Shown here piece by piece: positions 4,321 to 14,197 of a stretch of 64,000 nt of DNA. Positions within the stretch are counted from its first letter, which is position 1, and the number at the start of each line of letters is the position of its first letter. The stretch spans positions 64,001 through 128,000 of the forward strand of contig CM000432.1 of the NCBI GenBank assembly GCA_000165345.1, written 5' to 3'. The translations under genes were made by a program, and so were the position numbers. Below the pieces are notes generated by a model. It worked only from the letters and a program-made list of their open reading frames with translations. It was not told the DNA's origin and did not search any database.

Positions 4321-4335
4321 TTGAAATTTATTTCA

Positions 4336-7300
4336 ATGTTACTTAAAGAAATAGCGTCATCGGCAAAAATTAGTTGGTGTCCAATATCAACTAAGAATAA
4401 GCTGAGTTTGTTAGCTTTAGGAGGTTGTGGGCTAAATCCCTGTTTAAGTGTGGGATTAATTGATATTACCAATAATGGTAAAGATATTCAAAATATAGGA
4501 ACATCTTCTTTGAACTCAAGGTGCACATCAATAGCTTGGGGAAGTTTTAATCCAGAAGAGAATGCTTTGGGTCTTATTTGTACTGGAATGGAAGATGGTA
4601 ACATGAGTTTATTTAAGCCAATATTATCGACTTATGATTCAAATAGAAAAGATGGAGAAATCATGCTTGAAAGAATATGTGAAACAAACATTTATCCTTC
4701 TGCGGTAAGTTGTTTGGAATTCAATAAAACTGACCATCAGTTACTTGCATCTGGAGGAAATGATGGAAAAGTTTATGTTTTAGATTTGAGTGATGGTATA
4801 ACTGGAAATTTGAACTATTATGAGCCAGGAAAGGAAAATAAGCATGGAGATTCTGATGTGACTGCTTTGAAATGGAATCCAAAAGTCCCTCATATTATGT
4901 CATCTTCTTCAAGCAATGGTACTACAGCAATCTGGGATTTAAAGATGAAAAAAAGTGCTATTTCATTTAGAGATCCTGCTCAAAGATCTAGACCTTCGAC
5001 TTTAGCATGGGTTCCAAATCAACCAACACAAATAGTTGTGGGATATGATGATGATAGAAATCCCTCGCTCCAGTTATGGGATTTAAGAAATGTTTCATAT
5101 CCATTTAAAGAAGCTGTCTCTGCTCATCAAAAAGGAGTAATGTCTATAGAGTTTTCTCCAATTGATCCTAATTTATTGCTTTCTTCTGGAAAGGATGGAA
5201 AAACAATATGTTGGACATTATTAAATAACCAGCAGCCAGAAATATTTACAGAAATTCATTCTCAGCAATGGAGTGTTCAAAACCAATGGTCTCCAAATAT
5301 TCCTGGAATATTCGCTACAGCATCTCACAATGACAAGGTTAGTATCTATTCTTTATCATCACATTCCAGTACAACAACTTATATTCCATCTTGGTATCAT
5401 AAACCATGCGGAGTGAATTTCACATTTTCTGGTAAATTAGTTTCATTTTCGAGTAAATCTACTGGTGGAGTACCCCAATTTAACTTATATAGAGTACCTA
5501 CAAATCCTGAAATAACTGCTCATGCTGATATGTTTGATCAGTTACTCAACCAAGGAGACTTCATTGGCTATTGTCAGAAAAAATGTCAGGAATCAGAAAG
5601 TTCCAATGAAAAGCTTGCTTGGAGTCTGGTTGAAAATATGTTTTCTGAAGATTCTGTTGAAAGACGTCTATATATTGCTTCACTTTTGGGATTCGATTTC
5701 AATAATGCAAGTACAACAGCAAACCAGTTTTTAGGGAGAAAGTGTGGAGTAATATCACAGCAAGAAGAACTTCAAAAAGAACTTTCTGCTATTAATCAAC
5801 AAAACAATATCAGCTTAATCCAAGATCCTGCCTCTACTTCATTTACTGGAATGAGCTATCAAAATAGTCCAACTAATATGAATGGTAATAATATTTCTGG
5901 TTTTCAAACTTTATCGGGACAGATGGTATCCAATCAATCTTTGGACCCAGAAAAATTCTTCCAACAATTAGGAGAGAGTGAATCTCCCAATAATAATAAA
6001 GATAAAGAAACTGAATTTAATCAAAAAGATGACGAGCCTTATACATCTGGACAAGATTACTCTAGTGGAACAAGATTTTGTTGCGAAGGCGCTGACAATG
6101 AAATGATTGAAAATCCATTCGCCAGTATTCCTCAGGGTCAAGAAAACCAAACAAGCCATGATTTGTTTAATTCAAGTGGCTTCCCTGGAAGTAGTATGAA
6201 GTGTAATCACGGAGTTTATATACAACAAGGTACTGAGCTTTCTCATTCTAATCTAAGTGTTGGTAAGCTGCACAACTTAAGACAAAATGAATGGACAAAA
6301 CAAGAGGAGGATGTTATTAATGAACTACTTGTAACAGGAAATATTGATTCTGCAATTGATGTTTGTGTGCAAAGAGGATTTTTCGCTGAAGCTTTACTTT
6401 TGGCGGTAAAATTCGGAGGTATTTACCTTGACTATGTACAAAAACAATATTTGAAAAAACACGAATGTCAATATACCCAAAAGGTTTTAGGTCATGTGAT
6501 TATGGATGATCTTGAAGATTTTGTTAAGAGCAGTAACTTGGACCGTTGGAATGAAACTTTAGCAATTATTTCAATCTATACCCAACCTAATGGAATAAGA
6601 CTTGGAGATTATTCTTACCAGTCAAAGTATACAATGGAGAACCTCTCTGAATTGTTAGCTAAGAGATTGCAGGAAGAAAAGTTTGATGTTCGATCTGCAT
6701 TAATTTGCTATCTGTGTGCTCGAAACTTTAGAAATTCTATTGAAATTTGGGGTAACATGGCATCTTGCCAAAGCTCACAAATCATTGGACTTCAAGACTT
6801 TGTCGAAAAAGTAGCAATTCTTCAGGCAGCAACAAGATTTAATGGTAACGACGAGAATATTACAAAACAGGTTGTCCAATATGCTGAAATCCTTGCTAAT
6901 TCTGGAAGGATTGTAGCAGCAATGAAATTCCTTTCCTCCTTAGCTTCTAATGACTACTCCATTAACTCATCAACTTTAAGAGATAGGATATACAATGCAG
7001 CTCCAGAGCTCATGAGTTCTTTGGGATTTAACAAACCAAATTTCCCTTTCACCATTATCGATGTTGCTCCATTTGTGAATGCTAATGCAAATATTTACCA
7101 GCATCAACAACATCCAAACCAACAGCAACATGGTATGTTTGGAGTTAACAACTCGTTCCAATCAAATTTGAATATTGGCATGAATTCCTATCCAATGATG
7201 AATAATGGTAACAACAATACCGGTATGGGTATGGTGGGACAAATGATGCAACCTCCTCCTCTTTCATCTCATGGGGTGCCACCTTCAGGACCTTCTTCAA

Positions 7301-8415
7301 TCCACTCGAACCAGATGCATCCTTCTCCTCCCCCTCCTCCTCCCTCATCCATCCATTCTACAATAAATAATGGAATGCCAGGCGGTATTCAAACTCAATG
7401 TCAGGCATTTAGGCCAGGAATTCCATCTAGCTCGGGACTCCCTCCTCCTCCTCCTCCACCCTCTACTACTTCCTCTATTCCTCAAATGATGAGGCCATCT
7501 TCATCCTTACCATCAACTGGTAATGGGATGATGTCAAATCAGCTACCTCCGCCTCCTTCACAAAATATGGCTGCTCTAACTCGTCCAAGTTCTCCAAATG
7601 TAGCATATTCTCAGAACAATGTCGCACTTGGAGTTGGATCAGGATTGTCTTCCACAAACCAAGGTGTAAAACAATTCTTACCTCAGTCGGCTCAGCCTCC
7701 ACCAGTAAATCCTCCTAATTCTTTTATGAACAGCTTAAACAAGAACAATTTTGGTACTAACAATGTCCCTCCTGCTCCTATACCTACATCTATTCCAGCA
7801 CCTTCTCAAATCCCATCTTCAGTTCCTCCTGTGGCTCCTCCTCCAATGCCAAATTCAAATAATAGCAGTATTATTGGAGGAGGAATGCAAGGAGTCTTGA
7901 ATCAAGGAATCAGTCAAGTCGCTCCTCCATCAAACAGATCATCAATTACTACTGCCCCTCATAGTGGAGCTACACCACCAATACCAGGAATGCCAGTACC
8001 ATGGCCACTACCAACAGCAACACAACAATTGAATTCAACAACATCAACAACAGCAAACGCAAATAAACAGATTCAGGAAGCATCTAAAAAGAATAATTCC
8101 CAGATAGTGGGAAAACCTTTATCTGGTCAACTATTGGATATGGTAACAAATGTGGTGAATTCTAATTTGAATAGCATTTTTGCAAATGACCCAAGAAAGA
8201 AGATGGATGCTCAGAAAAGATTTGATGAGCTTTTTGAAAATCTAAGAGTTGGAAATATTTCAGAAACTGTTTCATCCAAAGTTGTTAATCTTTGCCAAGC
8301 CTTGCAAACAGGGGATTACTTGACTGCAAATAAAATCCATATTGATTTGAGTTCAACAGAGTGGGAGAATAATAAAAACTGGCTGATGGCTTTTAAGAGA
8401 ATTATTCCCAAATAA
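4336..8415 (+). CDS. SEC31: COPII outer-coat subunit Sec31. The ORF-track TTG start at 4321 is replaced by the first ATG at 4336.
   Basis: N-terminal WD40 beta-propeller repeats (WD dipeptides, 'GGNDGKVYVLDL'), a central alpha-solenoid, a long Pro-rich linker (PPPPPP runs encoded by CCT repeats ~7250-7470) and a conserved C-terminal domain. This architecture and length (~1360 aa) are typical of Sec31. Confidence 0.7.
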   Translation: MLLKEIASSAKISWCPISTKNKLSLLALGGCGLNPCLSVGLIDITNNGKDIQNIGTSSLNSRCTSIAWGSFNPEENALGLICTGMEDGNMSLFKPILSTYDSNRKDGEIMLERICETNIYPSAVSCLEFNKTDHQLLASGGNDGKVYVLDLSDGITGNLNYYEPGKENKHGDSDVTALKWNPKVPHIMSSSSSNGTTAIWDLKMKKSAISFRDPAQRSRPSTLAWVPNQPTQIVVGYDDDRNPSLQLWDLRNVSYPFKEAVSAHQKGVMSIEFSPIDPNLLLSSGKDGKTICWTLLNNQQPEIFTEIHSQQWSVQNQWSPNIPGIFATASHNDKVSIYSLSSHSSTTTYIPSWYHKPCGVNFTFSGKLVSFSSKSTGGVPQFNLYRVPTNPEITAHADMFDQLLNQGDFIGYCQKKCQESESSNEKLAWSLVENMFSEDSVERRLYIASLLGFDFNNASTTANQFLGRKCGVISQQEELQKELSAINQQNNISLIQDPASTSFTGMSYQNSPTNMNGNNISGFQTLSGQMVSNQSLDPEKFFQQLGESESPNNNKDKETEFNQKDDEPYTSGQDYSSGTRFCCEGADNEMIENPFASIPQGQENQTSHDLFNSSGFPGSSMKCNHGVYIQQGTELSHSNLSVGKLHNLRQNEWTKQEEDVINELLVTGNIDSAIDVCVQRGFFAEALLLAVKFGGIYLDYVQKQYLKKHECQYTQKVLGHVIMDDLEDFVKSSNLDRWNETLAIISIYTQPNGIRLGDYSYQSKYTMENLSELLAKRLQEEKFDVRSALICYLCARNFRNSIEIWGNMASCQSSQIIGLQDFVEKVAILQAATRFNGNDENITKQVVQYAEILANSGRIVAAMKFLSSLASNDYSINSSTLRDRIYNAAPELMSSLGFNKPNFPFTIIDVAPFVNANANIYQHQQHPNQQQHGMFGVNNSFQSNLNIGMNSYPMMNNGNNNTGMGMVGQMMQPPPLSSHGVPPSGPSSIHSNQMHPSPPPPPPSSIHSTINNGMPGGIQTQCQAFRPGIPSSSGLPPPPPPPSTTSSIPQMMRPSSSLPSTGNGMMSNQLPPPPSQNMAALTRPSSPNVAYSQNNVALGVGSGLSSTNQGVKQFLPQSAQPPPVNPPNSFMNSLNKNNFGTNNVPPAPIPTSIPAPSQIPSSVPPVAPPPMPNSNNSSIIGGGMQGVLNQGISQVAPPSNRSSITTAPHSGATPPIPGMPVPWPLPTATQQLNSTTSTTANANKQIQEASKKNNSQIVGKPLSGQLLDMVTNVVNSNLNSIFANDPRKKMDAQKRFDELFENLRVGNISETVSSKVVNLCQALQTGDYLTANKIHIDLSSTEWENNKNWLMAFKRIIPK

Positions 8416-8891: not shown

Positions 8892-9749
8892 TTAAATGAT
8901 TTTACTATTCTTTTGAAATTTACTGATATGATTCTTCCAAGATTGTTGTTTCTGTTTTGCTTGAGTTTCAAATATTTCATTTTTTTGTTGTTTTTTAATA
9001 ACCGAAATTTTTTTCTTCTTTTCAAGTTTAGTCTTTTCTGTGTCGTAAGACTTAATTAAAAGATTTTCAGGTATTTTATATCCAGCAGGAGTGGTAATAA
9101 TTGATGTGGAATCCAACGAATCGATAGTTTTATCGTGATTTAAATTGTTTCTAGAACTTTTACTAATCATTCTGACCCTATCATATGTAACATTTTCTTC
9201 TTGATTATAATCCAAGTATTTAATATTATATCCATTTTTAGTTAAACCAACAATTACAGAATTGTACCAATTACCATCTTCTTCAAATAAAACTTGAACC
9301 TTTTCTCCTACAGATAATCCCTTAAATTGTGGTAAAAGCTTTAAATCCTGAAATTGCAAACTAATTGTTTCTGGAATTTGACCAAATATCGAAATTAAAT
9401 AATAATCATTTATAGTGTTAGAAGCTGATTTTGGGTCTTTTGATTTAATTCTCCCAAATCTTTTGTTTCCTTTATAAAAAACTTCAACAATTTTTCCAAT
9501 ATTTACATCTTCAGGATTTTCATCACTGTTTTTCCTTTTATTATCAATAAGTTCCTCCACTAGTTGTATAACTTGTATTAAATCATCTCTAACTTCTTTA
9601 AGAATATCATAATTTGGGTCATCAGTCGTTAGTTTTAGAAGTTGTTCATCTATCTTTCTTAGTTGTTCCTGATTATCTTCAAATCTTTTTAACAATTCCT
9701 CATATGTTTCTTGAAAAATCTCCATTAATTTACTATTGACACGTGTCAT
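8892..9749 (-). CDS. SPF30/SMN-like Tudor-domain splicing factor.
   Basis: N-terminal coiled segment (EELLKRFEDNQEQLRKIDEQLLKL...DDLIQVIQLVEELI) resembles the SMN/SPF30 N-terminus. A central Tudor-like fold follows (GEKVQVLFEEDGNWYNSVIVGLTKNGYNIKYLDYNQEENV). ATG at 9749-9747 lies inside the palindrome TGACACGTGTCA. Confidence 0.5.
   Translation of the reverse strand: MTRVNSKLMEIFQETYEELLKRFEDNQEQLRKIDEQLLKLTTDDPNYDILKEVRDDLIQVIQLVEELIDNKRKNSDENPEDVNIGKIVEVFYKGNKRFGRIKSKDPKSASNTINDYYLISIFGQIPETISLQFQDLKLLPQFKGLSVGEKVQVLFEEDGNWYNSVIVGLTKNGYNIKYLDYNQEENVTYDRVRMISKSSRNNLNHDKTIDSLDSTSIITTPAGYKIPENLLIKSYDTEKTKLEKKKKISVIKKQQKNEIFETQAKQKQQSWKNHISKFQKNSKII
9737..9748. promoter_or_regulatory. Perfect 12-bp palindrome TGACACGTGTCA (E-box/G-box core CACGTG) overlapping the start codon of the SPF30-like gene; a second identical copy lies at 16008..16019.
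   Basis: Read directly. The reverse complement encodes ATG ACA CGT GTC A = MTRV at both loci. Confidence 0.5.
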
Positions 9750-9922
9750 CCCGCCACATGATTAATTATATGTAGTGGGAAAATTTTAATAAAAATAATG
9801 AAAAATTATCGCAAATATTAAAGATTCAAATATATCTTTTGGTTGATATACAATATTAGAAACCAAGTTTGAAATCGACTTTAACAAATTTTTTTTTGTT
9901 TTAATTAATTTAGGAAGTGAAA

Positions 9923-11710
9923 ATGGATGTAGAGCTCAATGACTTATTTAAGGAGCTAGAAAGAGTACAAAAACGTGAGATAAATAAGAACAAAATAAAT
10001 GAGAGAACATGTATTGAAATTTTATATAAGCTAATAAAGAAGAAAGGTCTAAATTTAATTACTAGCTTAGATGGGGAAACTTTTTACACACATAAATATT
10101 TGCTCAATAATATCCAAAATTTATTGGAGTCTAAGGGAAGAATTTCAATACATGATATTTCAAAAACAATGAAAATTTCAATAGAAGTAATATTAAAGCT
10201 AGTAAAAGATATGGAAAAAGATAATAACTACATTTTTTACAAGAGTGATATAATGACAAGAAAATATGTTGATGATATTTTTTATGATTTAAATCAAGAG
10301 TTACAAGATTTGCATATAGTGGGTTTAATGAAAATTTCAGAAAAAACGGATCTTTCTATTGAATTTATTAAAGAAGAAATTAAGAAAAGAGTGAATAATG
10401 GAGAGTCTGAGATTAAAGGTAATATAGTTTTTGAAACTAATAATAATCCATTGATAATTTCTAATACATATTATAAAATTATTGAATATATGATTAAAGG
10501 TGCATTATTAGTAGCTAAAAAGCCACTATATTTTGATGAAATTATAGATATAAAAATTCAAGATATCTCAATAATAATACAATCAACAAAAAATCTTATA
10601 GAAAAGAACTGGATTAAAGGCTTTATTTACGAAAATAAAATGTATATTCCCGACATTTTTATTAAAGAAGAAATATTATTTTTAATAAATTATTTTAAAA
10701 ATAATGGTTTTTTAGAAATTGAAAAAATTAAAGGTATTTTGAGATATTCTAATTCAAATTTGGAAATTAAAAATCAAAGAATTATTGAATGGTCAAAATT
10801 ACATTTAAGTGATAATATTATAATAATTGATGATTTATTTATTATTAATACTAATAAGGTAGAAATTATAAGGGATAATATTTTACACTCGTGTTTTGAG
10901 CTGAATCCTGGATACATTTACATTAATCACCTTCTTCCATACATTTTAACGAGTGAAATTAACAAAAATTACCATTTTGATATAATAAAACTAATTTATA
11001 AACTAAATAATCACCCAGCTGAAATACAAAGCAATGATTGGCTTTTCGTAACTTATGATGGACCTGAGTCATTATATATAACAAACCTTGACCGTTCTTA
11101 CTTTAAAATTCAATTTGAATTCGAAAGTAATGATATTAAAAATGACTTTGAAGAATTACAAGATATTTCAATCAAAAAATTTCAATTTAATTCAAGAAAA
11201 CATATTTTTAATAATAATTTTAACGCACTTTTATTTATCACAAACTTTAACTTAATTATTAATTCAAGAATAATTTGTAAATTCCAAGATTTTGTTTTTA
11301 GTAAACTAGAAAATACTATAAACAGTATGATTCTCCCTTATTTTCAACTTCTCCCAATCCCAAGTTCTGAGTTTAAGCCTATTAAGTCAAATGAAAAACA
11401 AAAAAACAAACAAATTCATAATTTCATTAATGAATTAGTTTCCAAAAATAATATAAAGGAACTTTTCCTTTCTGAGTTCAAGCAAGATTGGAATGAAATT
11501 ATTAATGATAACCCAAATAATATAGAAATTTTCTCATCAATAAGTTCTTCAAACAATATTCAAGCTAATGAAGATGATTTTCAAGATTTATTATGGCATC
11601 TAATTATTTACTCAATCGCACCATTTATTGTATATATCTATAATAGACGAATGAAATTTGTCTATGATCCCTCCAATGTTTCAAGAACCTTCCATATTGA
11701 AAAAGATTAA
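9923..11710 (+). CDS. UFL1: E3 UFM1-protein ligase 1 (UFL1)-like protein. The ORF-track GTG start at 9917 is replaced by ATG at 9923.
   Basis: N-terminus ...ERTCIEILYKLIKKKGLNLITSLDGETFYTHKYL...KGRISIHDISKTM... aligns with the conserved UFL1 N-terminal domain (ERNCIEIVNKLI...LDGKEYIT...RGGRVNIVDL). Further downstream, FIYENKMYIPDIFIK / NYFKNNGFLEIEKI match UFL1 blocks, as recalled from memory. Confidence 0.6.
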   Translation: MDVELNDLFKELERVQKREINKNKINERTCIEILYKLIKKKGLNLITSLDGETFYTHKYLLNNIQNLLESKGRISIHDISKTMKISIEVILKLVKDMEKDNNYIFYKSDIMTRKYVDDIFYDLNQELQDLHIVGLMKISEKTDLSIEFIKEEIKKRVNNGESEIKGNIVFETNNNPLIISNTYYKIIEYMIKGALLVAKKPLYFDEIIDIKIQDISIIIQSTKNLIEKNWIKGFIYENKMYIPDIFIKEEILFLINYFKNNGFLEIEKIKGILRYSNSNLEIKNQRIIEWSKLHLSDNIIIIDDLFIINTNKVEIIRDNILHSCFELNPGYIYINHLLPYILTSEINKNYHFDIIKLIYKLNNHPAEIQSNDWLFVTYDGPESLYITNLDRSYFKIQFEFESNDIKNDFEELQDISIKKFQFNSRKHIFNNNFNALLFITNFNLIINSRIICKFQDFVFSKLENTINSMILPYFQLLPIPSSEFKPIKSNEKQKNKQIHNFINELVSKNNIKELFLSEFKQDWNEIINDNPNNIEIFSSISSSNNIQANEDDFQDLLWHLIIYSIAPFIVYIYNRRMKFVYDPSNVSRTFHIEKD

Positions 11711-11995
11711 TAACTAGGGCAATAGGATATATTTTAATTTATATTTTTTCCGGGGTTTAAAGCTTTCAACCTGCATTTTTTTTATTTGTTAATTTTGGCG
11801 CGTAAATCCTATTTTTACACAAACTTTTTTTTGAATTAATCTTAACCAGAAAAATTTACTAAATACATTAATAAATCATAAAGTAGTGAAATAAATTGAG
11901 CATTTAAGATTAATTAACTTAATTGATTAAATTCATTAATATCTATAATGTTTCTTAATTTCTAATTATTAATATTGGAATATTATGTTGCTCAA

Positions 11996-14197
11996 ATGAA
12001 CAGGTAAGTATTAAATATCTTTCTTATCCAATAAATACATTACACATTATTTATATATTATAAATAACACTAATAATACCCATAATTAGTTGTGTGTTAG
12101 TGTATTATTGCTTATTTGTGAATCTTTCTAACCAACCATTATAGGGTTTTTCAATCATTACGTAGAAGAGTTTCAAGCTCAGAAGCTAGTAATACTCAAA
12201 ATTCCACTGATTGTAGTACTGACAATTGTAATAATTCTCAAGGTACAAAGAATAAGTCAGATTCGAAAAATACAAAAAATATCAGTAAATCATCAAATTC
12301 TTGTAATACTTCCTCAAAGCCAAGCAGTGATTCAAATAGTGTAAATGATGATCCAAGCTTATCCAAAAATAATGAAATTCAAAGTACAATATCTTCTGGT
12401 ACTGATCCTCCTTCAAACAATGATAACTCTTCGTCAAATTTAAATACATTTCTAAATGTTGATTTAAGTAACAATATAAAACCAAAAGAAATTTTAAATG
12501 ATAAATACAATAATTCATTTCAAAGTATTCAGATTAATAAGTCAGATTCAATTAATGGTGATATCAACATTTCTTTTCCTCCAATAGAATTTATTAAAAA
12601 TGAAAAATTTGCCTTCCTTCAAGCTTATTCTTTAGATTATGAAGATGGAACAAATAGGTCTTCTGATGAAGATTATAATGATAAAAAGGAGTCTAATCAC
12701 GAAATCTCTAACAAAAATAATGATCTAAACAATTATCATTCTCCTGAAGAATCCAATTTTTTAAGCAATACTAATCTTTTATTACCAATTGGAATTGTTG
12801 AAACAAATCATGGAATTTCACTTACTGATGATCCATTCTCTGCACTTGCTCTATTGCAAAATATGAAATCTCCTAATGAAATTCTATTACTTATTAAGAA
12901 AAAACTTATTGCATGTTGTATTACATTCAACTTTACTAACAACACTTATTCAAATCTTAAAGAGAAGAAAAGAGAAACCTTATTAGAGCTTGTTGAATAT
13001 ATTAACAATAATGACCATATTTTTCAAGAAGAAATTATCCCAGATGTACTCTTAATGATCACAAGTAATATATTTAGGCCATTTAATCAATGCCATGCTA
13101 ATCTTAATACAGGAAATTCTTTCTTACAATCTAACAATGCTTCTGGTAATTCAAGCATTCAGTCATCTAATTCTAATAATAATGGCTCATCATTAAACGG
13201 TTCTGTTGGTAATTCATTATCAGATTCAAAAGATGACGAACAACTTTTAGAACCTAGTTGGCCACATTTGCTTGTTATTTATGAGTTCTTTCTTAGATTT
13301 GTTATTAGTCCCCAATTCAGTACAAAAGTTGCAAAAAAATATATTGATAATACTTTCATACTTAAACTTATTGATTTATTTCAAAGTTTTGATCCTAGAG
13401 AAAGGGATTATCTTAAAACTATTCTACATCGAATCTATGGTAAAATTATGCCAAGAAGAAGTTGTATTAGAAAAGCTATGAAACATATCTTTTTGAGAGT
13501 TATTATTGACGGCGAACCTTATAATGGGATTGCTGAATTACTTGAAATTTTTGTCTCAATTGTCAATGGCTTTACAATTCCTCTTAAAGAAGAACATAAA
13601 ATATTTCTTGAAACTGCACTAATACCCTTACATAAAGCAAAATATATTTCTTCTTTCCACCAACAATTGATATATTGCTTAATACAATACATTGAAAAAG
13701 ATACAAAATTGTCTGTACCAATTATTGAAGGTGTTCTAAAGTATTGGCCAATTACTAACTCATCCAAACAAATTTTATTTTTAAATGAACTTGAAGAACT
13801 TTTTGAAATTACTCCTACAAATTACATTGAACCAATTCTAATTCCAATTTTTGAAAGACTTGCAAGTTGTATTCAAAGTCCACATTTTCATGTTGCTGAA
13901 AGAGTTTTATATCTTTGGAACAATGATATAATTGTTAATCTTATTAATGAATATAAATATGAAATATATCCTGTATTGATTAAGGCACTATCATGCAATG
14001 GAAAAAAACTACATTGGAATCCCACTGTACATGGGTTATCTTTTGTTGTTAATAAAGTTTTATCAGATACTGATCCTGAATTATTTTCACAAATTATTGA
14101 GCAATATAATGACGATAGTGCTAATATTGAAATTCAAAAAAAAGAAAGAGAAGAATACTGGAAGTATATTATTGAGCTTGCAGAAAGTATGGATTAA
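11996..14197 (+). CDS. PP2A regulatory subunit B56 (B'), 2 exons: join(11996..12003,12145..14197), with a 141-nt intron.
   Basis: Core EPSWPHLLVIYEFFLRFVISPQF...FDPRERDYLKTILHRIYGKIMPRRSCIRKAMKHIF is diagnostic for B56. The reading frame is open with no ATG for ~700 nt upstream of the track's start, back to an AG acceptor at 12143-12144. A micro-exon ATGAACAG|GTAAGT at 11996-12003 supplies the start (MNR|VFQSLRRRVSSSEAS...). Confidence 0.75.

Follow-up and report, generated by a model that had tools for sequence, protein, structure and literature searches.

Identification of a UFL1 orthologue in Cryptosporidium parvum

The 64,000-nucleotide stretch of Cryptosporidium parvum DNA analysed here (the window; assembly GCA_000165345.1, contig CM000432.1, positions 64,001 to 128,000, on a chromosome of ~1.1 Mb) carries at 9923..11710 of the forward strand a complete open reading frame (ORF) that was confirmed as a real orthologue of UFL1, the E3 ligase of UFM1 conjugation (UFMylation), maintained by selection. 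The gene probably encodes a scaffold-type UFM1 E3 that works as in animals and plants, save for a remodelled C-terminus. The ORF runs from an ATG at 9923 to a stop codon at 11708-11710, and its product of 595 amino acids (aa) is 100% identical to XP_625636.1 / CPATCC_001503 from C. parvum Iowa II. The surrounding DNA is AT-rich (22-27% GC), with tightly spaced and mostly intron-less ORFs.

A Pfam scan of 23 ORFs from the window matched the product to the E3_UFM1_ligase domain PF09743 (E = 6.2e-43, 147.8 bits, profile positions 1-262 of 272), the gathering cut-off for this family being 23.2 bits. The domain occupies aa 4-271 (9932..10735, +) and aligns with residues 6-272 of human UFL1. An earlier note on this DNA had proposed the identity from the N-terminal ~150 aa and asked for a profile search, which bore it out; the alignment was real, but the extent given was too short. 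Chains of human UFL1 in the PDB were matched with E = 2e-16 by the single sequence, and with E = 1e-21 (aa 3-269 against human 6-272) by a genus profile made from ten Cryptosporidium UFL1 orthologues. The match to the UFL1 family is far beyond chance. Sequence and predicted structure together revealed the PF09743 domain, a helix alpha1 with UFC1-contact residues and a winged-helix array; the sole UFL1 trait not found was the peptidyl-transferase centre (PTC) loop with the canonical C-terminal domain (CTD), which is a feature of the human protein and lies outside the Pfam definition. At 595 aa, the C. parvum protein falls 199 aa short of human UFL1 (794 aa), in line with the deficit of ~200 aa that the earlier note had pointed out.

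The name of the gene was already in use. UniRef gives 'E3 UFM1-protein ligase 1(-like N-terminal domain-containing protein)', and NCBI applies 'E3 UFM1-protein ligase 1' to C. parvum WRK32111.1 and to records of C. tyzzeri and C. felis; other records read 'hypothetical protein' (Iowa II) or, twice at NCBI, 'transmembrane domain-containing protein'. Since the identification is in the databases and the apicomplexan pattern of UFMylation has been published, the finding is confirmatory and not surprising; the reduced, genus-specific C-terminal module appears to be undescribed so far. The WRK32111.1 model is 549 aa long, with aa 241-286 removed as an in-frame 138-nt intron (10643-10780, +). This model was rejected because the excised stretch aligns with human UFL1 and is kept in all other species; it is probably a mis-splice but might represent a minor isoform instead.

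Conservation and selection

Orthologues of UFL1 were present in at least ten Cryptosporidium species, the gastric C. andersoni included, with 48% (C. felis) as the lowest identity cited. The C. andersoni orthologue has 562 aa and matched PF09743 with E = 2.8e-47 and 162 bits. Between C. parvum and C. meleagridis the ratio of nonsynonymous to synonymous substitution rates (dN/dS; Nei-Gojobori method) was 0.169 for the whole ORF and hardly differed between residues 1-271 (0.166) and residues 272-595 (0.171). The gene is under purifying selection, its C-terminal half included. The gene order, comprising a WD40 protein, a Tudor-domain protein, UFL1, a B56 subunit and an abhydrolase, was also found in C. 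meleagridis.

These data leave almost no room for a decaying relic or a mis-annotated ORF without function. Such a reading could draw on the 'hypothetical protein' label in Iowa II and on a C-terminal half without homologues beyond the genus; however, the ORF is intact in all these species, the deeply diverged C. andersoni among them, the synteny is kept in C. meleagridis, and dN/dS is 0.17 in both halves. With this ratio and the intact orthologues, a pseudogene was rejected as effectively refuted.

The N-terminal half

The AlphaFold2 (AF2) model of the full-length protein, with a predicted local distance difference test score (pLDDT) of 59.8, comprised a helix at residues 3-18, a helix plus hairpin at 27-56 and winged-helix patterns up to ~388. 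A Foldseek search against the PDB returned seven significant matches, all of them human UFL1 chains and one a UFL1-DDRGK1 fusion construct; the best was 8qfc_B (E = 3.8e-12, 357 columns), and 8ohd_A was matched with E = 5.2e-11.

The predicted helix alpha1 (aa 3-18; 9929..9976, +) is the counterpart of the human helix that binds UFC1, in which I8R, F15R or Q19R abolish binding (Makhlouf et al. 2024). Human I8, F15 and Q19 align with L5, L12 and Q16 of C. parvum. Both L12 and Q16 were invariant in 11/11 aligned orthologues (the ten plus C. andersoni), and L5 was replaced by Ile solely in C. felis and C. andersoni (I/L/Q), while residues nearby varied. Judged by alignment, the putative UFC1-contact positions of alpha1 are thus conserved throughout the genus.

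Conservation by segment was taken as the mean identity over eight non-redundant orthologues, with a whole-protein value of 0.63. The best-conserved segment, at 0.89, was the partial winged helix (pWH) at aa 27-56 (10001..10090, +), for which AF2 predicted a helix at 27-41 and strands at 45-47 and 54-56. Human pWH is a half-domain that folds only together with DDRGK1/UFBP1, forming a composite domain, and its conservation in these sequences fits an obligate partner; by analogy, a DDRGK1-like protein would complete it in Cryptosporidium. The earlier note had placed the DDRGK1 and CDK5RAP3 interfaces in the missing C-terminus, a claim that has to be withdrawn, since human UFL1 binds DDRGK1 through the N-terminal pWH and its C-terminus is a module for the PTC and the tRNA sites. 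The winged-helix array follows from aa 57 to ~388 (10091..11086, +), with repeated helix/strand patterns in AF2 and Foldseek. The modelled pattern is consistent with WH1-WH5, the count of five being approximate, as residues 157-215 were of low confidence.

If the protein works as we propose, alpha1 would recruit UFM1-charged UFC1, and a DDRGK1/UFBP1-like partner would complete the pWH and tether the complex to the endoplasmic reticulum (ER). The winged-helix array would sit on the 60S subunit, and RPL26 would receive UFM1, the same target as in the animal and plant systems.

Presence of a UFM1 pathway

A UFM1 conjugation pathway is, we judge, quite probably present in the parasite. Family C78, to which the UFM1-specific proteases belong, is represented in a MEROPS-derived table by one peptidase each for C. 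parvum, C. muris, T. gondii, both Theileria and the kinetoplastids, and by none for five Plasmodium species, Entamoeba, Trichomonas and Giardia (Katrib et al. 2012). In Alveolata, UFL1 co-varies with UFM1, UFC1, UBA5, UFSP1/2 and CDK5RAP3, with 'concordant loss events' (CladeOScope). According to Picchianti (2023), the modifier UFM1 is gone from fungi as well as from Plasmodium, Gregarina, Perkinsus and Vitrella, and persists in Toxoplasma 'and other apicomplexan parasites'; this agrees with the earlier note in that UFMylation is missing from fungi and patchy among protists. In Plasmodium and Gregarina, RPL26/uL24 has a truncated form of the C-terminal extension that bears the UFMylated lysines (Picchianti 2023). 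The conservation of alpha1 and the pWH, the dN/dS values, the C78 listing and the concordant alveolate losses plausibly favour the pathway.

Several points weigh against it. Family C78 also covers ZUFSP/ZUP1-type deubiquitinases, so that an entry is no proof of a UFM1 protease, and Gregarina, which lost UFM1, is closely related to Cryptosporidium. With human UFM1 as the query of the protein collection, the best 120 of 1,663 matches were all metazoan and included none from Cryptosporidium. Neither tblastn with UFM1 and UFC1 nor the Pfam scan of the 23 ORFs detected UFM1, UBA5, UFC1, DDRGK1, CDK5RAP3 or any other UFM1-pathway gene in the 64-kb window. UFM names were missing from the Cryptosporidium gene tables that were searched, a literature search yielded no study of UFMylation in this genus, and the PDB contained no apicomplexan UFM1 or UFC1. 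The AF2 models were only moderately confident (pLDDT 60 and 63). No UFM1 was found in any apicomplexan surveyed by Ponts (2008), a result contradicted for Toxoplasma by later work. In Albugo and Neocallimastigomycetes, UFL1 and DDRGK1 persist without UFM1 (Picchianti 2023), and a UFL1 gene alone is therefore no proof of the pathway.

Apart from one divergent sequence, the protist UFM1s recovered from metagenome contigs were 81-92% identical to the human protein, with 85-92% for AT-rich protists. As these sequences are so near to human UFM1, a divergent parasite UFM1 is not expected among the best 120 matches. The divergent one, an intron-less UFM1, lies on the eukaryotic metagenome contig Ga0247837_1000681 (73 kb, 53% GC) at L050:1501-1746; it was 72% identical to the human protein and contained ASD-ERLPFREIQ... 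and AGAVFLKHGADLK.

Alternatively, the parasite may have lost UFM1, UBA5 and UFC1, much as Gregarina and Plasmodium lost UFM1, and may have kept UFL1, perhaps along with DDRGK1, for a role that needs no UFM1, for example the binding of 60S subunits at the ER. The lack of a Cryptosporidium UFM1 in the best 120 matches, the lack of UFM1 and UFC1 in the window and the survey of Ponts (2008) speak for this alternative, and the remodelled C-terminal module could mark a changed function. We consider it unlikely: across the Cryptosporidium orthologues, to which the comparison was confined, alpha1 holds on to all three putative UFC1-contact positions amid drift nearby, and this would be hard to reconcile with a loss of UFC1. 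Moreover, C. parvum and C. muris each have a C78 entry, the family shows a phyletic pattern that matches that of UFM1, and the pathway losses in alveolates are concordant.

Unlike Plasmodium and Gregarina, Cryptosporidium has retained UFL1, and UFM1-based ER-ribosome quality control can thus be put to the test as a hypothesis in a parasite for which drug targets are scarce. The uneven spread of UFMylation across parasites has been considered a potential weak point: lineages that lack it may have another way of dealing with stalled ER ribosomes (Picchianti 2023).

The genus-specific C-terminal domain

The PTC module of human UFL1 has two parts. One is a protrusion of 88 residues (388-476), in which loop 436-448 extends with its GGN apex to the peptidyl-transferase centre; the other is a CTD (515-786), by which the A, P and E tRNA sites are occupied. 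Past the winged-helix array, ~207 aa remain in Cryptosporidium vs ~406 in human UFL1, and the missing ~200 residues belong to this ribosome PTC/tRNA-site module, not to the DDRGK1 interface. A profile of residues 272-595 found no relevant match in the PDB, and a Foldseek search of the PDB with the C-terminal model gave none. An exhaustive HMMER search of 1.84 billion representative proteins returned no relatives of the C-terminal half outside the Cryptosporidium cluster and C. andersoni.

A conserved GG[N/Q] apex was absent from every orthologue examined. The only candidate for a PTC loop was a variable acidic loop at aa 397-432 (11111..11218, +), roughly at the position of the human protrusion, with pLDDT <50; no other segment of the protein was conserved less (0.37), and in C. 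andersoni the loop is nearly deleted. The genus-specific helical domain follows at aa 433-595 (11219..11707, +). Modelled on their own with AF2, residues 330-595 were better defined, with a predicted template-modelling score (pTM) of 0.65 and three long helices of pLDDT 80-93. The C-terminal tail at aa 575-591 (11645..11695, +) carries the motif N-x-R-[ML]...S-N-x-S-x-T-F-H-[IV], for which the mean identity was 0.80; its N, R, S, N, S, T, F and H are invariant, C. andersoni included. The domain is closed by the genus-wide signature D-L-x-W ... I-Y-N-x-R ... S-N-x-S-x-T-F-H-I.

A domain of ~200 aa without a PTC loop implies that probing or blocking of the PTC would have been lost, or would be achieved otherwise. 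Tentatively, the protein may be a natural 'minimal' UFM1 E3, in which alpha1, the pWH and the winged-helix array were kept and the PTC module was swapped for a genus-specific domain of ~200 aa that brings a conserved hydrophobic helix and a tail with an N-x-S sequon of its own. In that event, PTC probing would be dispensable for ribosome UFMylation here, or replaced by another contact with the ribosome or the membrane. The replaced C-terminal module would be a natural experiment on the need for the PTC-binding region in the core function of UFL1.

The hydrophobic helix near the C-terminus

The 'transmembrane' annotation originates from a hydrophobic helix segment at aa 556-574 (11588..11644, +). 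Its mean Kyte-Doolittle hydropathy reached 1.52 in both C. parvum and C. hominis; the other close species lay at 1.46-1.56 and the divergent orthologues at 1.1-1.3, with ~1.1 for C. felis and P0010. The summed Hessa-type insertion energy ranged from +4.3 to +8.4 kcal/mol in 9/9 species, approximate figures that speak against a tail anchor. The segment is probably a buried helix.

If it were instead an ER tail anchor, the ligase would be self-anchored and would take over the membrane tethering of DDRGK1. Two NCBI records say 'transmembrane domain-containing', the segment is the most hydrophobic 19-mer of the C. parvum protein and ends 21-26 aa before the C-terminus, and its motif is kept genus-wide. 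We nevertheless regard a tail anchor as distinctly improbable, given the marginal hydrophobicity (~1.1 in C. felis and P0010), an insertion energy that is positive in every species tested and the conserved W, H/N, S, P and Y residues within the helix. The would-be 'luminal' tail is unusually conserved (0.80), AF2 puts the segment confidently within a long helix of a domain with pTM 0.65, and the best-conserved segment is the pWH, which would need DDRGK1.

An N-x-S sequon (N-V-S, N-I-S or N-T-S) at aa 585-587 (11675-11683) was kept in 11/11 orthologues. It would be relevant only with a luminal tail, against which the hydrophobicity argues.

Neighbouring genes

The gene upstream and divergent from UFL1 lies at 8892..9749 (-) and encodes 285 aa (XP_625635.1). 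It was described in the earlier note as SPF30-like; it carries a Tudor domain (PF00567, E = 7e-7) and its public name is '30 kDa splicing factor, SPF 30'. Its dN/dS vs C. meleagridis was 0.122 by the same method, not far from that of UFL1, and its sequence had no PDB match at E < 0.01. The spacer between the two genes (9750..9922) is exactly the 173 bp that had been noted, and from the gene arrangement it could hold a bidirectional promoter. At 9750-9756, adjoining the start codon of the SPF30-like gene, it contains CCCGCCA (reverse complement TGGCGGG), and TTTGGCGCG is found at 11794-11802, inside the spacer between UFL1 and B56. Both look similar to the E2F-like motif reported for the upstream regions of many Cryptosporidium genes.

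Downstream of UFL1, 285 bp separate its stop codon from the ATG of a PP2A B56 gene (11996-14197, +). The first exon of this gene has 8 nt (ATGAACAG, 11996-12003) and is followed by a 141-nt GTAAGT...TATAG intron (12004-12144). The protein has a long Ser/Asn-rich N-terminal extension without an in-frame start codon, and the spliced product measures 686 aa vs 447 aa in the raw ORF. The C. meleagridis B56 model has an equal 8-nt exon and 141-nt intron, with a product of 684 aa that is 95% identical.

Directly upstream of the SPF30-like gene, and syntenic in C. meleagridis, 4321-8415 (+) encodes a protein of 1364 aa in which a WD40 propeller at the N-terminus is combined with an ancestral-coatomer domain of the Sec16/Sec31 type (PF12931, E = 5e-5). 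Presumably, this combination marks a Sec31-like coat subunit of COPII architecture.

Comparison with known UFL1 systems

Human UFL1 (PDB 8ohd, 8qfc and 8c0d) is the catalytic scaffold of the UFL1-UFBP1(DDRGK1)-CDK5RAP3 'UREL' complex. The Cryptosporidium protein resembles it in the PF09743 domain, the alpha1 contact positions, the predicted N-terminal pWH and the winged-helix array, and human UFL1 was its best structural match in the PDB; in contrast, the ~400-aa PTC module of the human protein has its place taken by the ~200-aa genus-specific helical domain. With the UFL1s of other apicomplexans, such as Toxoplasma gondii, the same pathway context is presumed to be shared, whereas HMMER detected in them no relative of the C-terminal half. 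Apicomplexans that retain UFM1 have a C53/CDK5RAP3 without shuffled ATG8-interacting motifs (sAIMs) (Picchianti 2023). In Albugo and the Neocallimastigomycetes, with their orphan UFL1 and DDRGK1, the UFL1 gene has outlived UFM1; set against these lineages, the conservation of alpha1, the C78 listing and the concordant alveolate profiles argue that Cryptosporidium has UFM1.

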